A program made the translations under genes and the position numbers. The notes beneath the pieces were generated by a model, which ran no database searches, was not told the origin of the DNA, and saw nothing but the letters and a program-made list of their open reading frames with translations. From assembly GCA_016186995.1 (NCBI GenBank), contig JACPKQ010000007.1, positions 52,226 through 116,225 of the forward strand: a stretch of 64,000 nt of DNA. The letters run 5' to 3'. Below, one piece after another: positions 967-7,760 of this stretch; position 1 is the stretch's first letter, and every line of letters starts with the position of its first letter. The stretch comes from Deltaproteobacteria bacterium (lineage in GTDB: Bacteria; Bdellovibrionota; JACOXK01).

Positions 967-2445
967 ACTTTGTTTTATTTTTGGAAAGACAAGGTTATTT
1001 AAAACTTCAAATATCTTTAGCAATGCAAGTGTATCTAACTTGCAGTATTTTTTAAGATCCTGTTCTATTTTTTTAATTTTAGAAGAAGATAATTTTGTTT
1101 TTTGAACATTAAGATACGCAACGCTTGCTAGTGTGCCTTTATTTATATCAAGATCTTCATATGTAAGTTCAGGGCATAAAACGGGTAGAATGCTTTTTAA
1201 ACTAAGAGAGCCATAAAATTTAGGATCGTAATAAAATTTTTGAAAGACTTCTTCTAAGTCGATCATATTAGTTGCGATGTTGTTTATTTCGTCTTCAAAG
1301 GGAAGAAAGATTTTTGATAAGTTGTTAAGTATCATTTTTTCAAAACTGGCATGGTAAGCGATAACTGAGCCATTATCACCTATAGTATCTAACAAGTTTT
1401 GAATAAAAGCGGGCCTGGGATCTTTTTTATTTAAATCTAGAAAGTCTTTGTGGGTGATATTTCCTTCAGAATCTAAGATATGACAACTAAATTGAAATGG
1501 AAGTTGTTCATAGGGGTGTATGCCTTTAAAAAGTGGAATGGCTGGGTTTGCTGTTTCAAAATCAAGAAAATGAATGGGGTATTGAAGCTGGTTAATAAAG
1601 TTTTCAATTCCTTCTTTGTCGATATAAGGCTTATTTTCTTCAATGGTTTTCTTTTGGGCATACTGAAAGACATTGAGTTTATAATTTTCTGGAAGATCTT
1701 TTATTTTTAAAATACCTGATTTATACAGTTTAAACTTTTCTGTATTTTTTAAATGATAAAGTTCAAAGACTGAGTGCTCTGTTACATGTTGCCAACAGTG
1801 ACTTTTAAAAGGACATTCATAGGGCTCATTACAATAAGGACCAATATCAATATTAGGCGCAGTTTCTAGTTTCAATGTTTCAAATTGTCTTTTTAAATTA
1901 GATTCTATTCCAATTTGTTTTATTAGGACCTTGTCAGTTATGTCTTCTTTAATAAAAAAATTTGAGAGCTCTGGATAAGTACACTCTGTATTTACATGCA
2001 TAAGGAAGGTGTTTTCTATATTGATATTGTTGTTTTTAAGAACGTAATATTGAATAGCGACATCATCTATCAAATGATCTTCTACTTTAGTGGTTGATTT
2101 TACTTCTATAAGATTCCATCCCGTTTCGGTTTTTTCTAAAATATCAGCTTTAACAAGGATATCATTATATTCAAAAGTTGCTTCAAATATAGCTTGAGGT
2201 TCTTTTTCTAGGACTTTTTGCGTGAGTTCTATCTGTTTTTCTAATCCTCTTTCTTGTATGGTACATATATCGATACCGTCTTTAAAAAAGGTTTTAGCTA
2301 GATTGCCAACTTCATGGCCTTGTTGAAAAAGAAATTTTTCAGCCTCATCTAAGTTTTTCTTAAGTTTAGGTTGTTTGGTACCAAGGTAGAGTGCTTTTAA
2401 GCACTTTATTCCGGTTAAGTATCTTGATTTTGAAAGTTTAGCCAT
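958..2445 (-). CDS. DUF2779 family nuclease. The N-terminal half is a Cas4/RecB-like PD-(D/E)xK domain with a Cys cluster; the C-terminal half is a DnaQ-like DEDD exonuclease domain.
   Basis: The N-terminus KSRYLTGIKCLKALYL is typical of DUF2779. PD-(D/E)xK-like motif: DILVKADIL...IEVKS. Cys cluster: CNEPYECPFKSHCW. C-terminal motifs FLDFET and YHASFE match exonuclease motifs I and III. 495 aa. Confidence 0.6.
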   Translation of the reverse strand: MAKLSKSRYLTGIKCLKALYLGTKQPKLKKNLDEAEKFLFQQGHEVGNLAKTFFKDGIDICTIQERGLEKQIELTQKVLEKEPQAIFEATFEYNDILVKADILEKTETGWNLIEVKSTTKVEDHLIDDVAIQYYVLKNNNINIENTFLMHVNTECTYPELSNFFIKEDITDKVLIKQIGIESNLKRQFETLKLETAPNIDIGPYCNEPYECPFKSHCWQHVTEHSVFELYHLKNTEKFKLYKSGILKIKDLPENYKLNVFQYAQKKTIEENKPYIDKEGIENFINQLQYPIHFLDFETANPAIPLFKGIHPYEQLPFQFSCHILDSEGNITHKDFLDLNKKDPRPAFIQNLLDTIGDNGSVIAYHASFEKMILNNLSKIFLPFEDEINNIATNMIDLEEVFQKFYYDPKFYGSLSLKSILPVLCPELTYEDLDINKGTLASVAYLNVQKTKLSSSKIKKIEQDLKKYCKLDTLALLKIFEVLNNLVFPKIKQSHG

Positions 2446-2514
2446 AAGCTTTTTATCGGAATTCTTTTTAGAATCCTTAAGTCTATGTAACTATTATATT
2501 TTTTGATTTAATTG

Positions 2515-3021
2515 TTATAAAGCTTTTTCGGCTAGAGCAACAAGGTCAAGCTTTAGAAGGGATTCATATTTCTTAGGCAAAGCACTCATATTTTTTAGGT
2601 GTATGTTTTTGATATTACCTCGAATTACTTTCTGTAAATCAAAGCCCATGACAGACTTTTTAATTTCAAATAGAAGGTCATTTCCATTAAAAATATAAAA
2701 GTTGAGAGGTATTTTCTTTTCAACAAGTGTGTGAGGAAGGTTAAAGTTTTTTAGCTTTTTCTGAACTGCTTTTTCAAAGGAAGATATTACTTTCATAATA
2801 ATTGCAGTTGTTGAAACTGAAATTTCATATTTTCTAAGTTCCAGGGCCACAATAAACTCAAAAAGATTTTTTTGAGAGAACTTTCGCCATTGGCCCCGAC
2901 CTTGCGTTTGTTCAAATTCTGGAACGATGACGTTTTTTTCACAGAGGTGAATTAAAACATGCTGTGGCATGCCCAGTTTAATTTGAATTTCTTTAAGCGT
3001 TAGCTGTTCCATTATCGACAT
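2515..3021 (-). CDS. MerR-family HTH transcriptional regulator-like protein
   Basis: The N-terminus LTLKEIQIKLGMPQHVLIHLCEKNVIVPEFEQTQGRGQWRKFSQKNLFEF fits the MerR HTH plus its RxYS-like region. The C-terminal half has no recognisable domain. Confidence 0.4.
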   Translation of the reverse strand: MSIMEQLTLKEIQIKLGMPQHVLIHLCEKNVIVPEFEQTQGRGQWRKFSQKNLFEFIVALELRKYEISVSTTAIIMKVISSFEKAVQKKLKNFNLPHTLVEKKIPLNFYIFNGNDLLFEIKKSVMGFDLQKVIRGNIKNIHLKNMSALPKKYESLLKLDLVALAEKAL

Positions 3022-3068
3022 TGTCTATTAAAATTGATTCCAGGTCAATCTTAAGCTATGCTCAAATA

Positions 3069-3167
3069 ATGGCTCAAGTTAAAGGTATCCTTTTTGATCT
3101 CGACAACACGCTGATTGATTTTATGAAAATGAAGAGAATAACTTGTTTAGAGACTGCCTTTGCATGA
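3069..3167 (+). pseudogene. Fragment (32 codons) duplicating the N-terminus of the HAD hydrolase gene at 5589-6248
   Basis: Fragment: MAQVKGILFDLDNTLIDFMKMKRITCLETAFA*. Intact gene: MKKIKGILFDLDNTLIDFMKMKKMACSEAAAAM. DNA identity is about 75%, with many synonymous changes. The fragment terminates prematurely at TGA. Confidence 0.6.
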
Positions 3168-3446
3168 CTGCAAAACTACAAAATACAGTGTGGCTATAGC
3201 GACAAGTAGTGTAAAAATGTCAATACTTAGTGACCACTTAAACTTCTTAGAATCTCTTTCAGCTTTTAGCTTCATCTCCTTCATTATTTCGTTATGCATC
3301 TCCCGTGAATTTGACATAACTGTAGGATAGCAATGCTAAGATTAGCGTGCAAGACTCAAATGTAGCTCTAATAAATGTATATCTAATTTTATAGATATAC
3401 TATTGTATTGCTATAGTAATTATGATAAAAATGATATCTTGTTAGC

Positions 3447-4256
3447 ATGAAGGAAACGTTTTATAAAAAGGAAATTAAAGTTCATGGCAATGTATATCCT
3501 TCCATTCGACAAGCAGCGCTATATTTTCATCTGAAACCACAACTTGTATGGGCTAGATTGAAGAGAGGAAAATCTATAGACGAAGCATTTTCAAAAGTTT
3601 ACCTCAAGCGTATCGGTAAAGGAAAGCCCTTTTCTATAGAAGGGAATCATTTTGATTCAATTGCGGAAGCGGCAAGGTTTTATGATATAAATGAAAGCAC
3701 AGTTCGACACCGGCTAAAATCTGGATGGTCAAGAAAGCAAGCGTTTGGAATTGTAGGCCGGCCTCGAAAAGACCGCATAAAGATCAAGGTAAATAATATA
3801 GAATATTCTTCACTCACTGAAGCAGCACGCGCTCATAATTTAGCTCCTTCAATTGTTTGGCAAAGACGTCGACGAGGGTGTTCTATAGAAGAATTGTTCT
3901 CAAAAGATTGCTTGCCGTTGAAAGGCAAAAGTCGAACAATTGTCGTACAAGACAAAACATATCCTTCAGCAAAAATCGCAGCTGTAAAGTTTGGTGTTCA
4001 TTATAGCAAAGTACGTTGGCGTCTTAAGAATGGTTGGTCGCCAGAGCAAGCTTGTGGCATTGAGGAACGACCAGTTAAGCAGCGGAGACCTGTTTCATTC
4101 AGAGGTAAACAACATGAATCAATGTCTACTTTTGCACGGTATTACGAAAAAGATCCAAGATTAATTGGTGCGCGGTTAAGACGCGGATTGAGTATTGAGG
4201 AAGCGCTTGATATTAAAGAAAGGAATTATCGATCTAAGCCAATTACCTGTTTATAG
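3447..4256 (+). CDS. Protein made of five tandem NUMOD-like HTH DNA-binding repeats (nuclease-associated modular DNA-binding domain), with no nuclease domain
   Basis: Five roughly 45-aa repeats with the pattern (V/I)xGxxYxSxxxAAxxxxxxxxxVxxRLxxGWSxExA, for example IEGNHFDSIAEAARFYDINESTVRHRLKSGWSRKQAFG. ATG start. The 3' end overlaps the next ORF in another frame. Confidence 0.55.
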   Translation: MKETFYKKEIKVHGNVYPSIRQAALYFHLKPQLVWARLKRGKSIDEAFSKVYLKRIGKGKPFSIEGNHFDSIAEAARFYDINESTVRHRLKSGWSRKQAFGIVGRPRKDRIKIKVNNIEYSSLTEAARAHNLAPSIVWQRRRRGCSIEELFSKDCLPLKGKSRTIVVQDKTYPSAKIAAVKFGVHYSKVRWRLKNGWSPEQACGIEERPVKQRRPVSFRGKQHESMSTFARYYEKDPRLIGARLRRGLSIEEALDIKERNYRSKPITCL

Positions 4257-4980
4257 TGTGACCAATACAAAAGCCGGTAAGCAATATGTTGGCGAGTCCT
4301 CATGTACACTTGAAAAGCGTAGGCAATGGCACATGAAGCAAGTTTACGGTGAAAAGAGACCTGCTGAAGGTAGTTTGCAGGAGGCGATTAAAAGAGATGA
4401 ACCTGAGTATTTTAAATGGAAAGTGCTTGCACGCTGTAGGTCGATAGATCAAGCTAACAGACTCGAACGAAAATTTATCAGAGAGTTTAATACTTCATAC
4501 CCACATGGTTACAATCTTCGGCGAGGTGGGACAGGCATTTCAAAAAAAGGTAAAAAAATATTGGTGAATGGGAAGCCTTTTGACTCTTACAGAGCTGCAG
4601 CTGATGCCCATGGTGTAAATATTGGAACATTTCAGGATAGGTTGTACGCGGGGTATTCACCCGAACAGGCTGCTGGTTTGATTCCGCTTGATAAAGTGCA
4701 TCCAAAATCACGTAAAATTAAAATAGATAATATAGAATATCCAACAATAAAAGATGCTGCTAAAGCTGCTGGTCAGCCTGCAAATAGAGTGAGAAATAGA
4801 ATTCACTCTGGCTGGTCTGTAGAAAAGGCGCTTAAAACACCATTTTCGAGAAGAGATACTCCTGTGAAAATTGATGGTACCACTTATTCATCAATGGGGG
4901 TTGCTGCAAGGAAATTAGGTATTAATTATGACACATTGAGATACAGGCTGAAAAAGCAAAGGAAGAACATGTATGTTTAA
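4195..4980 (+). CDS. GIY-YIG family homing-endonuclease-like protein with three C-terminal NUMOD-like repeats. Either it starts on TTG or it is the frameshifted continuation of 3447-4256.
   Basis: PVYSVTNTKAGKQYVGES...LEKRRQWH...FNTSYPHGYNLRRGG matches the GIY-x10-YIG motif, the conserved Arg and the catalytic Glu region. It is followed by VNGKPFDSYRAAADAHGVNIGTFQDRLYAGYSPEQAAG-type repeats. There is no in-frame ATG upstream of the GIY motif. Confidence 0.6.
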   Translation: MRKRLILKKGIIDLSQLPVYSVTNTKAGKQYVGESSCTLEKRRQWHMKQVYGEKRPAEGSLQEAIKRDEPEYFKWKVLARCRSIDQANRLERKFIREFNTSYPHGYNLRRGGTGISKKGKKILVNGKPFDSYRAAADAHGVNIGTFQDRLYAGYSPEQAAGLIPLDKVHPKSRKIKIDNIEYPTIKDAAKAAGQPANRVRNRIHSGWSVEKALKTPFSRRDTPVKIDGTTYSSMGVAARKLGINYDTLRYRLKKQRKNMYV

Positions 4981-5067
4981 AATTAAAGATATTCTTTTCT
5001 TACAAAATAGAGTGGTTAGACATTTCGATGCAAAAATTAGAATGTCAGTAAATTGTGGAGATAAATC

Positions 5068-5592
5068 TTGAGTATTAAGATTGTTCCCTTGATAGAGGCA
5101 ATTCCAAATTCTGGATACGATTCCAATAAACGACGGTCTAGTTTATTAGCACATGCTGGCGTTGCTTATCTCGAGGCATATGAAGCTATGAGCAATCTAC
5201 CTGAAAAGGGATTTGCTGTTCATTTCGTTGAGCTACCTTTATTGCACATGACTTTGGAACTTTTGATAAAAGCGTATGTGTCGTGGATTGATGATAGTTT
5301 TGATCCAAAAAAAAGGGCATACAGACATTGTACAAAAAAAATTATTGAAGATTATGCGGATAAAATAAATGAATTCTCTTTGATAAAGAATAATCCTGAG
5401 AAAATTGCTCTCATTGAACAGCTAGAAAAAGCATGGAGATACTTGAGATATGGGGAAAGCACCCTTACGTGTGAAAGAAAAGATTTACATATGGCAAAAG
5501 ATTTAGCAATCGAACTTGCAGAAGCTTATCATAAAGCCACTGGTCTTCGCTTTTTTAGCCATCATTTTTCGCAAAAAGGAGCAAAAAGGTGA
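5068..5592 (+). CDS. Hypothetical all-helical protein; possibly HEPN-like (tentative)
   Basis: 174-aa ORF with a TTG start. The R-x3-H stretch (RKDLH) and the helical composition only loosely suggest HEPN. It sits between the GIY-YIG gene and the HAD gene. Confidence 0.3.
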   Translation: MSIKIVPLIEAIPNSGYDSNKRRSSLLAHAGVAYLEAYEAMSNLPEKGFAVHFVELPLLHMTLELLIKAYVSWIDDSFDPKKRAYRHCTKKIIEDYADKINEFSLIKNNPEKIALIEQLEKAWRYLRYGESTLTCERKDLHMAKDLAIELAEAYHKATGLRFFSHHFSQKGAKR

Positions 5593-6248
5593 AAAAAATA
5601 AAAGGTATACTCTTTGATTTGGATAATACACTCATAGATTTCATGAAAATGAAGAAAATGGCTTGTTCTGAGGCTGCAGCAGCCATGCTTGGTGCAGGGC
5701 TAAAAATAAAAGCAGAGAACTTGGCAGATGATCTTTTTAAATATTATTTAAATTATGGTATTGAGGGTGATTATCCTTTCACTGACTTTTTAAAAGAGCA
5801 TAATGCCTATAAAGATGAAATTCTGGCAGCAGCAATCAATGCTTATAATCGGGTGAAATCAGCTTTTCTAGAACCCTATCCAGGGGTGATTCCAACGTTC
5901 ATTAAGTTAATTAAAAAAGGAATAAAGCTTGGTATTGTGACAGATGCCCCTTCTTTAAAAGCTCACAGAAGAATTGACTCTATGAAGCTTCACGGATTTT
6001 TCGATGTCGTTGTTACTGAAGCAAATAAACCTGATCCGAAAGGTTTTTTGGAGGCTGTGAAGAAATTGAATCTGGAGCCAAAAGAAGTCATGATGCTCGG
6101 TGATTGGCCTGAGAAAGACATAGTTGGGGCTAAAAACGCAGGACTCATCACTTGTTTTGCAAAGTATGGGCAAATGGAAAATGTTAAAGAGAAAGTTGAA
6201 GCTGACTATGTGATTCAACGAATTGAGGAGGTTAATCAAATTTTATGA
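5589..6248 (+). CDS. HAD-superfamily hydrolase (subfamily IA; phosphatase or pyrophosphatase-like)
   Basis: Motif I DxDxT in ILFDLDNTLIDF. Motif III is K within VTEANKPDPKGF. Motif IV is GD in MLGDWPEKDIVGAKNAG. GTG start. Confidence 0.75.
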   Translation: MKKIKGILFDLDNTLIDFMKMKKMACSEAAAAMLGAGLKIKAENLADDLFKYYLNYGIEGDYPFTDFLKEHNAYKDEILAAAINAYNRVKSAFLEPYPGVIPTFIKLIKKGIKLGIVTDAPSLKAHRRIDSMKLHGFFDVVVTEANKPDPKGFLEAVKKLNLEPKEVMMLGDWPEKDIVGAKNAGLITCFAKYGQMENVKEKVEADYVIQRIEEVNQIL

Positions 6249-6822: not shown

Positions 6823-7530
6823 ATGAGTGATGTAACTTTTAAATACAAAGGTAAGACATATACAGAAGCAAAGAATGCTGAATCAAGCAAAGATTCTGAG
6901 CGATATAAGTGCTTTGATTCCATTATTCAACTGACAGATGACGAAGGCAGTACCCTTTCCGGTCTGTTTCATGACAAAGATTTGGAGGTCATTCAGCTTG
7001 GCCTTGTAGCTGGAGAATTTAAGCCTAAACTTTTATCGACTTTAAAAGTTACTCAAATGGTGACTTTCTTGCTTTATAGGTTCAATGTTTTTGACCTTCA
7101 GATGGGAATTGGGATTCTATATGCTAAAGCTTACAAAAAAGGAAATGCATCTTTTTATATGCCGAATGAATTGTTAAAAATGCTCAATGAACCTAAACTT
7201 TCTATTTTTAAAAAAAGAAAAGATAAATGTGGAACGCATGTTTCTGTGCCTGATAGAATTAATATGCTTAAGGAAAATAAAATCTGCCAAGATGATTCCC
7301 TTCTTAAATCTGTAAGGGCATTTGGTCATTTGAGAAATGTCTTAGTACATCCATTGTTTAAACAGCGAGAACCAATAACGGCTCTAAAAGAATTAGGATA
7401 TGATATCATTTTGATGAATATTTATGAAAAAGACATGCGCTCGATTGAGCAAGTAGGAAAACTTATTTTAGAAAGTTGGTATTGTATAAATCAGATAAAG
7501 CATTATGTTTGTGACTTGGTTAAAAATTAG
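6823..7530 (+). CDS. Hypothetical protein
   Basis: 235-aa ORF with RBS GGAAGCCGAGA upstream. No recognisable motif. Confidence 0.35.
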   Translation: MSDVTFKYKGKTYTEAKNAESSKDSERYKCFDSIIQLTDDEGSTLSGLFHDKDLEVIQLGLVAGEFKPKLLSTLKVTQMVTFLLYRFNVFDLQMGIGILYAKAYKKGNASFYMPNELLKMLNEPKLSIFKKRKDKCGTHVSVPDRINMLKENKICQDDSLLKSVRAFGHLRNVLVHPLFKQREPITALKELGYDIILMNIYEKDMRSIEQVGKLILESWYCINQIKHYVCDLVKN

Positions 7531-7726
7531 GGTAAGAAGTTTTTGAAAAAATTGCCTTTTTGACGGTTTTTTCATCAACCCCAAGAGCCTTTCCGATTTG
7601 ATAATAATTCATCCCTAATTTAAAAAGTTGTTTGGCTTTTGGGCTGATTTTTTGATAAAGAAAGAGTTCTTCTGTAAATATTGGGAAATCAAGGTCAATT
7701 TCAGAGATGGTGCGAATTGGTGGCAA
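7520..7726 (-). CDS. Small HTH-domain protein, possibly a transposase or resolvase HTH remnant
   Basis: NYYQIGKALGVDEKTVKKAI is a classic HTH. Only 68 aa. Confidence 0.3.
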   Translation of the reverse strand: MPPIRTISEIDLDFPIFTEELFLYQKISPKAKQLFKLGMNYYQIGKALGVDEKTVKKAIFSKTSYPNF

Positions 7727-7760
7727 ACGTGTCCACCAACTTCTATATTTTTTGTTATTA

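Follow-up and report, generated by a model that had tools for sequence, protein, structure and literature searches.

A diverged stub of a HAD hydrolase gene beside a broken GIY-YIG endonuclease gene: a possible 5' gene-end replacement in a bacterial accessory island

In the prevailing view, a homing endonuclease gene survives inside an essential or conserved gene only with the help of a self-splicing intron or an intein, or else lies between genes. Here, we describe a locus in a stretch of 64,000 nucleotides (the 64-kb window, hereafter the window) from a low-GC metagenome-assembled genome (MAG) labelled Deltaproteobacteria, in which a 32-codon copy of the start of a HAD hydrolase gene, hereafter the stub, is separated from the intact HAD gene by a block of about 2.4 kb carrying a split homing-endonuclease-type gene of the GIY-YIG family.

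The closest described systems are the mORFs of fungal mitochondria, where an endonuclease open reading frame (ORF) arrives together with a foreign gene 3' end and the native end is left behind as a remnant (PMC3630166; PMC6279837). Such cases comprise atp6 of Allomyces macrogynus, atp6, atp9, cox2 and nad3 of Glomus sp., and cob and atp6 of Endoconidiophora (PMC3630166, PMC6279837), and the duplicated ends are 64-81% identical in DNA and 94-100% in protein (PMC3630166). In the window locus, too, a free-standing endonuclease gene (GIY-YIG or LAGLIDADG in the mORFs) separates the functional end of a gene from a displaced copy of that end, which also holds for the second locus described below (L034). 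Likewise, the duplicates have diverged in DNA (71-78% nucleotide identity in the window) and are conserved in protein (nine synonymous changes and one conservative replacement in codons 5-23), and the endonuclease gene is broken, as mORF endonuclease ORFs often are degenerate. On the other hand, the window duplicates a 5' end instead of a 3' end, the host is a bacterial accessory island in a MAG and not an organelle, the endonuclease is encoded by a separate gene instead of being fused in frame, and the cassette carries extra ORFs.

Free-standing GIY-YIG Seg proteins of T4-like phages carry out intronless homing with co-conversion of flanking markers (PMC2988022, PMC2330249, PMC13096335), and one of these enzymes, SegB, can drive segmental duplication (PMC13096335). 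Common to both systems are the GIY-YIG catalytic domain, DNA binding by NUMOD/helix-turn-helix (HTH) elements, the position beside rather than inside a conserved gene and, for the window at least putatively, co-transfer of flanking DNA. In Seg proteins, however, the nuclease domain is N-terminal and the binding part C-terminal, whereas the family found in the window has its nuclease domain in the middle of an array of 8-9 repeats, unlike I-TevI. Moreover, Seg homing normally proceeds without a partial duplicate of the target gene, and the window has no evident phage context. In the homing endonuclease gene (HEG) islands of phages, these genes are found at exchange boundaries and encode repetitive DNA-binding arrays resembling 'beads on a string' (PMC10448857). 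There, as in the window, nuclease genes stand at mosaic breakpoints next to conserved genes, and CapR/Zn-finger repeats recur (compare the ORF at 3-965 on the minus strand, discussed below), but that work concerned phage genomes and the T5orf172 or HNH families and described no gene-end stubs (PMC10448857). Finally, integrative elements with att sites in tRNA, tmRNA or protein genes share with the window the direct repeats around the insert and a replacement end that keeps the target intact, but the window has no integrase inside the repeats and no identical core, the arms being only 78% identical.

The duplicated start of the HAD gene

The segment at 3069-3167, which belongs to a frame open from 3021, reads MAQVKGILFDLDNTLIDFMKMKRITCLETAFA followed by a stop codon and copies the start of the HAD gene at 5589 (VKKIKGILFDLDNTLIDFMKMKKMACSEAAAA...), including motif I (FDLDNT, of the DxDxT type), which is present in both. 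Repeat finding returned a single direct repeat of 82 nt here (Table 1), with a longest identical run of 13 nt between its arms, and comparison of the upstream with the downstream flank by blastn gave a match of 77 nt at 79% identity (E 3e-14). A DNA profile covering 150 nt at the 5' ends of seven related HAD genes matched 3070-3164 with an E value of 1.6e-20, and no third comparable match was found in the window (nhmmer). In tblastn, the stub matched six HAD proteins with E values of 1e-11 to 1e-13. The homology extends from the start codon to approximately 3170, perhaps to 3186 if gaps are allowed (MAFFT and local alignments with four HAD genes), and neither other parts of HAD nor further significant HAD remnants were detectable in 2400-5588. 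The stub is 71% identical to the intact start over the first 96 nt and 78-79% identical over the repeat core of 77-82 nt; its codons 24-32 have decayed (63% identity), and its reading frame stops after a 1-nt deletion in the sequence that reads GCC ATG in the intact genes. A preliminary description of the locus, made from the sequence alone, had read this segment as a copy of the HAD N-terminus of about 75% nucleotide identity running into a stop, and as the left edge of a block with a homing-endonuclease-type gene. Both points are borne out, the stub being followed by the split endonuclease gene at 3447-4980. A scan of 2900-5700 for promoters and terminators gave counts at the level of shuffled sequence.

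The divergence between the two HAD starts was assessed against the closest relative, a locus represented by L003/L042 with a HAD protein 83% identical to that of the window. The stub and the resident start agree at 51/69 positions (74%) of nt 1-69, which is among the lowest values of all HAD 5' pairs compared, while their agreement with L003 amounts to 58/69 (84%) and 57/69 (83%), respectively. As the identity between the two copies lies below that of each copy to L003, the two copies did not arise by a recent intragenomic duplication. Ten codons differ between stub and resident copy in codons 5-23, nine of them synonymously and one by a conservative R/K replacement, although only 16% of random single-base changes in these codons would be synonymous. 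This pattern indicates that both copies diverged as working genes and that the truncation came late. The stub and the resident 5' end are thus best described as two diverged, formerly functional HAD lineages.

The first 96 nt are also the most conserved stretch of the HAD gene, with a mean pairwise identity of 0.81-0.83 compared to 0.56-0.78 elsewhere. The gene itself is mosaic: between the window and L003, identity is 0.77 over nt 1-48, rises to 0.81-0.92 over nt 49-432, where other HAD pairs reach 0.63-0.78, and is at background level beyond. The breakpoints seen in sliding windows lie near nt 48 and nt 430 and not at the repeat end. Recombination inside the HAD gene therefore does occur. 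Among protein families, TIGR02253 is the closest to the HAD product, which scores below its threshold (150.9 bits, cut-off 169.75), and relatives of the gene are 64-83% identical. Its Shine-Dalgarno sequence (AAGGAG) is located inside the end of the preceding 174-aa ORF.

Table 1. Coordinates of features of the locus (window numbering unless L034 is given)
Feature	Position	Strand	Basis or remark
MerR-like helix-turn-helix gene, divergent from the stub (47 nt apart)	2515..3021	-	63% identical to L003 homologue
Dead 5' stub of HAD hydrolase gene, 32 codons and stop	3069..3167	+	tblastn, nhmmer, alignment
Left repeat arm (right arm 5596-5677)	3076..3157	+	82 nt, 78% identical, spacing 2520 nt
56-codon ORF (ORF56), one predicted transmembrane helix	3147..3317	-	ORF list and sequence
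N-terminal half of split endonuclease gene: five NUMOD1/I-TevI-type helix-turn-helix repeats, no catalytic domain	3447..4256	+	Pfam, PHROG, colinearity with P0143
C-terminal half: GIY-YIG catalytic domain (from ~4249) and three NUMOD-type repeats, +1 frame relative to first half	4195..4980	+	Pfam, TIGR01453, alignment with P0143
Deletion and frameshift junction splitting the endonuclease gene: KPITCL-stop in frame 0, YSVTN... in frame +1	4244..4256	+	Sequence
Tentative older HAD 5' remnant: small ORF MFKIKDILFLQNRVVRHFDAKIRM... (MFKIKDILF...), ATG overlapping the endonuclease stop codon	4973..5044	+	Weak match
174-aa all-helical ORF; stop overlaps HAD start (GTGA)	5068..5592	+	ORF list, AlphaFold
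Intact HAD-IA hydrolase gene; first ~90 nt form the right repeat arm	5589..6248	+	Pfam HAD_2 3e-26, Hydrolase 2e-25
Short HTH gene, third gene common to both islands	7520..7726	-	92% aa, ~87% nt identity to 99-aa ORF of L003
L034: 25-codon stub VRIKAILFDMDNTLIDFIGMKKTAT and stop	6136-6213		nhmmer, 5' profile
L034: start of intact HAD	7216		

The split endonuclease gene and the rest of the block

Two overlapping ORFs downstream of the stub matched homing endonuclease families. The first (3447-4256) gave the Pfam families NUMOD1, I-TevI_DNA-bd and I-HmuI_NUMOD-like as well as HNH/homing endonuclease families among the PHROGs, and the second (4195-4980) gave Pfam GIY-YIG (E 4.5e-4) and NUMOD1 and a homing endonuclease PHROG (8.6e-23). 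NUMOD1 and I-TevI_DNA-bd were matched in both, with a repeat count of 5 + 3, and the second ORF scored 56.0 bits against TIGR01453, for which the cut-off is 56.05. A word-indexed protein search with the GIY-YIG ORF returned no relatives, and an exhaustive HMMER search was needed; it yielded 8484, many of which span 360-790 aa and carry the GIY-YIG domain centrally, embedded in the repeat array. Phage homing endonucleases, too, are related to the gene.

Alignment with one of these homologues, the 604-aa protein P0143, showed residues 11-269 of the first ORF to be colinear with its residues 61-310, and residues 20-252 of the second to align with its residues 365-598. The intervening residues 311-364 of P0143, corresponding to one repeat of about 54 residues, are absent exactly at the junction between the two ORFs, where the frame shifts by +1. 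Alignments with P0144 and P0147 agree that one repeat was lost at this point, and in all three homologues a repeat of about 53-55 residues lies between 'KP(I/L)xC(L/V)' and the GIY motif. Judged from these alignments, the NUMOD ORF and the GIY-YIG ORF are the halves of one broken gene and not two genes. The uninterrupted reading frame of a GIY-YIG homing endonuclease is absent, and the split gene is probably inactive. Seven residues that are invariant across six family members (Y20, Y31, G33, R42, H46, E91 and N107) are nevertheless all kept in the window protein. With the catalytic residues intact, the damage must be recent, or else the halves still work.

Two further properties of the gene were assessed. 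Flanking repeats of gene ends could be dismissed as a general habit of this endonuclease family, as 0/12 viral loci carrying related endonuclease genes had a repeat of the HAD type. At 0.40, the endonuclease gene exceeds the mean GC content of the window by only 1.1 standard deviations (SD), its neighbours in the island being AT-rich (0.31-0.33), and the local rise to 0.40-0.425 falls within the normal range of the window. The GC comparison across the block, which had been proposed earlier, thus gave no sign of foreignness.

The block had previously been taken to encode NUMOD-repeat, GIY-YIG and HEPN-like ORFs only. The NUMOD and GIY-YIG parts are indeed present, as a single disrupted gene, but no support was obtained for the HEPN-like part, and ORF56 has to be added. 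The ORF that had been called HEPN-like is the 174-aa ORF directly upstream of HAD. It had no match in Pfam, PHROGs, PADLOC or NCBIfam, its sole match in the PDB was marginal and unrelated (E 0.04), and its AlphaFold model was helical with a pLDDT of 45, too low for a fold search. R-x5/6-H and R-x4-H strings can be seen by eye. The ORF is identical in two independent Logan contigs. Further downstream, beyond HAD, a 235-aa ORF (6823-7530, plus strand) contains ...AFGHLRNVLVHP..., an R-N-x3-H string like the active-site motif of HEPN proteins, and had no family match in the HMM libraries. If any ORF hereabouts were HEPN-like, the choice would fall on this one and not on the 174-aa ORF.

ORF56 runs towards the stub from the opposite direction and ends inside it, its final six codons (SCKGSL) being 3150-3167 read in reverse complement. 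No homologue of it was present in any fetched locus. ORF56 probably represents a donor gene cut off after its start, with six codons of stub sequence appended.

Two weaker HAD-like matches were observed within the block. The small ORF that begins at the endonuclease stop codon (Table 1) is the third-best match to the HAD 5' end in the window on both strands, and the match is in register. Compared with L003 without gaps, it agrees at 41/72 positions (mean 19.8, SD 4.0; the next-best unrelated positions gave 39, 38 and 38) and at 18/23 consensus positions; nhmmer gave an E value of only 0.78 within the cassette. It is a tentative candidate for an older HAD stub and, if real, would be evidence of serial insertions. 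A similarity to the HAD 5' profile at 5358-5416 (plus strand), inside the 174-aa ORF, was likewise weak (E 0.017 within the cassette) and was also found as a repeat; the region is AT-rich, and the similarity may be due to chance.

A second locus, the mosaic island and the origin of the stub

The HAD 5' profile matched twice in a metagenome contig, L034, whose HAD is 58% identical to that of the window. Here, the start of a 25-codon stub overlaps the stop of an upstream 260-aa gene, as in a native operon. Between the stub and the intact HAD lie exactly two genes, both of the Endonuc_Holl family (PF10107, E 5e-25 and 3e-15), with spacers of 14 nt from the stub to the first nuclease gene and 2 nt from the second to HAD. 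The repeat is 70 nt long and 83% identical (E 4e-17), and in codons 5-23 there are seven synonymous and two non-synonymous differences between the copies. The breakpoints in the two loci are close to each other, at codon ~26 in L034 and codon ~32 in the window. By this arrangement, L034 is a second, independent case of a stub, nuclease genes and an intact HAD in series. The last 76 nt of L034 are 100% identical to the first 76 nt of another contig, L032, and the two contigs are probably neighbours. At its end, L032 has a second HAD start (7077-7268) with motif I as FDLNNT, its second Asp replaced, and it also contains a truncated copy of the MBL gene. This suggests that the genome has a second HAD approximately 7 kb away and that an MBL-X-HAD unit was duplicated in tandem.

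The surroundings of the window locus were compared with those of L003/L042, where the gene order is smpB, a frameshifted large serine recombinase, a 57-aa ORF and the MerR-like gene, then a type I restriction-modification system (hsdM, hsdS, hsdR) and three unknown genes, and finally a PDDEXK_1 gene overlapping the HAD start, HAD, DUF4365 and a 99-aa HTH gene. Only the MerR-like gene (63% identity in amino acids), HAD (83%) and the HTH gene (92%) are common to the window and L003, and the cargo between them is entirely different, with 8.7 kb of other DNA between the MerR-like gene and HAD in L003. The HTH match covers about 190 nt (window 7550-7735, minus strand, and L003 11715-11905; about 87% in nucleotides) encoding the C-terminal HTH, and the flanks on both sides are unrelated. 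This stretch is more conserved than HAD or the MerR-like gene, and its L003 counterpart has the same relative position and orientation; the gene is probably a core gene at the right-hand limit of the island. Compared in this way, the locus is a mosaic accessory island with the MerR-like, HAD and HTH genes as its shared parts, in keeping with the accessory island proposed earlier.

The explanation that we lean towards, with somewhat better than even confidence, is that the start of HAD was replaced by a nuclease cassette in a homing-type event and that the old start was stranded as the stub. A foreign block of 2.4 kb would have recombined into the first ~100 nt of HAD, the stretch that encodes the catalytic DxDxT motif. 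Besides the truncated ORF56, the NUMOD-GIY-YIG-NUMOD gene and the 174-aa ORF, the block would have brought along a HAD 5' end of its own or an entire HAD gene, and this replacement start would have kept the hydrolase intact, with the first 32 codons of the recipient left upstream. We infer a cut, a donor, a polarity in which the stub would be the native copy, and a causal role of the nuclease, as follows. In a HAD allele free of the cassette, a sequence-tolerant nuclease would cut the conserved motif-I stretch; repair on the 3' side would proceed by copying from a cassette-bearing donor, through HAD and leftwards; and the left end would be joined illegitimately, which would leave the stub and cut ORF56. 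An illegitimate joining would arise because the DNA upstream of HAD is non-homologous between islands, and an ORF56 that runs into the stub is what would be expected of such an arbitrary junction. Later, the endonuclease gene would have lost one DNA-binding repeat and shifted frame. Homing genes commonly decay after fixation. That a mobile nuclease cassette displaced a HAD copy had already been suggested in the preliminary description, and it fits both the two diverged, formerly functional lineages and the same architecture in L034.

Several observations weigh against this explanation. The endonuclease gene is broken, and HAD is only a presumed cleavage target. The key feature of the mORF cases, a remnant clearly closer to a sister taxon, is absent, as the comparison with L003 ends in a tie (58/69 against 57/69) that leaves the native copy undecided by identity. 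In L034/L032, the apparent tandem duplication of HAD and the upstream MBL gene favours the decay of a paralogue there. Furthermore, the PDDEXK_1-HAD pair (61% amino acid identity) and the SNase-HAD pair (68%) are orthologous between genomes and thus stable operons, so that a nuclease beside HAD need not be a selfish insertion. Neither an empty-site allele nor a second copy of the cassette was found among the relatives searched. Those without the endonuclease gene carry other cargo, so that a clean empty site is lacking, and the expected relative in which HAD abuts the MerR-like gene in the absence of the cassette did not turn up either, the closest MerR-like homologues (71%) having no HAD within 300-370 nt upstream. 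Finally, a single MAG assembly is the source of both the left junction and the frameshift, the independent Logan contigs covering only 4805 onward. As for the observation that had been named beforehand as counter-evidence, the same stub and cassette in an identical conserved context, no relative carries the cassette.

The main alternative is a passive swap of cargo, in which homologous recombination between islands anchored in HAD was accompanied by a sloppy, illegitimate left junction and the endonuclease was a mere passenger. We regard this as rather unlikely, even though the unequal divergence of the three shared genes around unrelated cargo, the mosaic structure of HAD itself, the non-nuclease DNA in the block (ORF56 and the 174-aa ORF) and the broken endonuclease gene all agree with it. 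It does not readily account for two independent stubs with nuclease genes beside both, for an L034 insert made up of nothing but two nuclease genes with short spacers, or for breakpoints in the same region of HAD, at ~25-32 codons, in both cases. Lower still is the probability that we assign to a decayed tandem paralogue, that is, to two full HAD genes with upstream partners, the upstream one of which lost everything past codon 32, and to a separate arrival of the endonuclease. Two long-lived functional copies would leave the signature of purifying selection that was observed, and the L034/L032 genome does seem to hold two HAD copies ~7 kb apart, with an MBL gene before each, in addition to the stub. 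Yet no second HAD was found by nhmmer and in the gene tables within the available locus sequence of L003, L005, L007, L019, L020 and L021, there is no other HAD remnant between the copies in the window, and the stubs of the window and of L034 break off at the same place, a coincidence that random deletion would not lead one to expect.

The direct repeats around an insert that restores its target are typical of integrase-borne elements, and the MerR-like family is linked to large serine recombinases, so the repeats might be the attL and attR of an integrative element that targeted and rebuilt the HAD 5' end. This is very improbable, given that no recombinase is encoded between the repeats (3168-5588), that the arms are only 78% identical with no identical run above 13 nt, that large serine recombinases leave no long repeats, and that the recombinase of L042 is located at the far end of the island by smpB, where there is no HAD stub. 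The scarcely credible last possibility is an assembly artefact, with strain variants of the HAD 5' end joined in series. The source is a MAG, and the independent Logan contigs stop short of the left junction. A false join at a shared k-mer would, however, give one hybrid gene and not a stub followed by 2.4 kb of unique sequence, the right junction (the 3' end of the endonuclease gene, the 174-aa ORF and HAD) is present at 100% identity in two other assemblies (Logan contigs), and the same architecture occurs in the unrelated assembly of L034.

Neighbouring genes and meaning of the arrangement

The relatives compared are labelled Bdellovibrionota or Deltaproteobacteria. The genes upstream of HAD are DUF2779 in L005, DUF2779 and SNase in L007, SNase in L021, and an N6-methylase and PDDEXK_1 in L019, and a nuclease gene overlaps the HAD start in these four loci, as it does in L003. 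A nuclease upstream of HAD is thus found in the close family and in L034/L032; it is not found in distant DPANN archaeal loci, by which the notion that a nuclease always precedes HAD was ruled out. In L021, HAD was matched in two overlapping pieces (residues 1-154 and 146-219, within 725-1400), which suggests a frameshift near the 3' end. Outside the small bacterial clade, the nearest HAD homologues (L008-L017) are TIGR02253-type proteins of DPANN archaea with 45-52% identity, and their sequences hint at a transfer of the gene between domains. A contig scan with HAD returned only such DPANN archaeal genes of about 50% identity, a metagenome scan with the HAD family alignment few close relatives, and a viral scan none.

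The MerR-like gene belongs to a family of 165-170 aa that adjoins large serine recombinase genes with Resolvase, Recombinase and Zn_ribbon_recom domains in three unrelated contigs (L003/L042, L035 and L041), and its product may be a regulator or directionality factor of serine-recombinase elements. The recombinase in L042 (10001-12700) is split into ORFs of 283 and 336 aa and lies directly beside smpB, while L041 has a diversity-generating retroelement (RVT_1 and bAvd) just upstream. A palindromic motif of the type ATTGTCTAT / TAGACAnTGTCTA stands by the start codon of the MerR-like gene in both genomes (window 3022-3040; L003 745-760 and 1311-1330) and is a possible operator.

Further to the left, a gene on the minus strand (958-2445) encodes a DUF2779 protein with Cas4-like PD-(D/E)XK and RNase H-like parts, 48-49% identical to those of L005 (436-1998) and L007 (60-1550). 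In both of these loci, the gene lies directly upstream of HAD on the same strand, whereas in the window it is on the opposite strand, beyond the MerR-like gene. Its stop overlaps the start, at 965, of another minus-strand ORF (3-965) that runs off the left end of the window and encodes four DUF4379 treble-clef zinc-finger repeats and CapR-homology domains; the last visible residues (...ELDLYNRNLGLAIEYQGIQH) resemble the start of a PD-(D/E)XK nuclease domain. Arrays of CapR domains and Zn fingers form the DNA-binding part of phage T5orf172 homing endonucleases (PMC10448857), and on the left side of the island this ORF may represent a second gene for a homing-type nuclease.

A wider reading of these loci is that free-standing nuclease cassettes from unrelated families (GIY-YIG in the window, Holliday-resolvase-like PD-(D/E)XK in L034) land repeatedly in the motif-I stretch of this HAD family, each sparing the host gene through a diverged replacement 5' end rather than through an intron or intein. 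We offer this tentatively and consider it doubtful on present evidence; the relatives in which a PDDEXK_1, SNase or DUF2779 gene overlaps the HAD start may add to these cases. Were it true, it would amount to a third, so far undescribed strategy of harmless insertion for homing nucleases in bacteria and archaea, and the remnant at 4973, if real, would record serial rounds of insertion. Were the nuclease without a causal role, the stub would be an ordinary recombination scar. In either case, the locus illustrates how an accessory island of the defence type exchanges its cargo around a small set of conserved genes.

Replacement of a gene end is a third route by which homing endonuclease genes can persist, so far documented at 3' ends in fungal mitochondria (PMC3630166; PMC6279837). 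What would be new here is its occurrence in a prokaryotic island and at a 5' end, next to a nuclease of the homing type, and it seems to recur at HAD with an unrelated nuclease family. If this is true, gene-end replacement would be general and not a peculiarity of mitochondria, and some of the short orphan gene starts in prokaryotic genomes would be explained. The succession of a stub, a nuclease gene and an intact gene would then provide a simple signature for finding new homing nucleases together with their targets.

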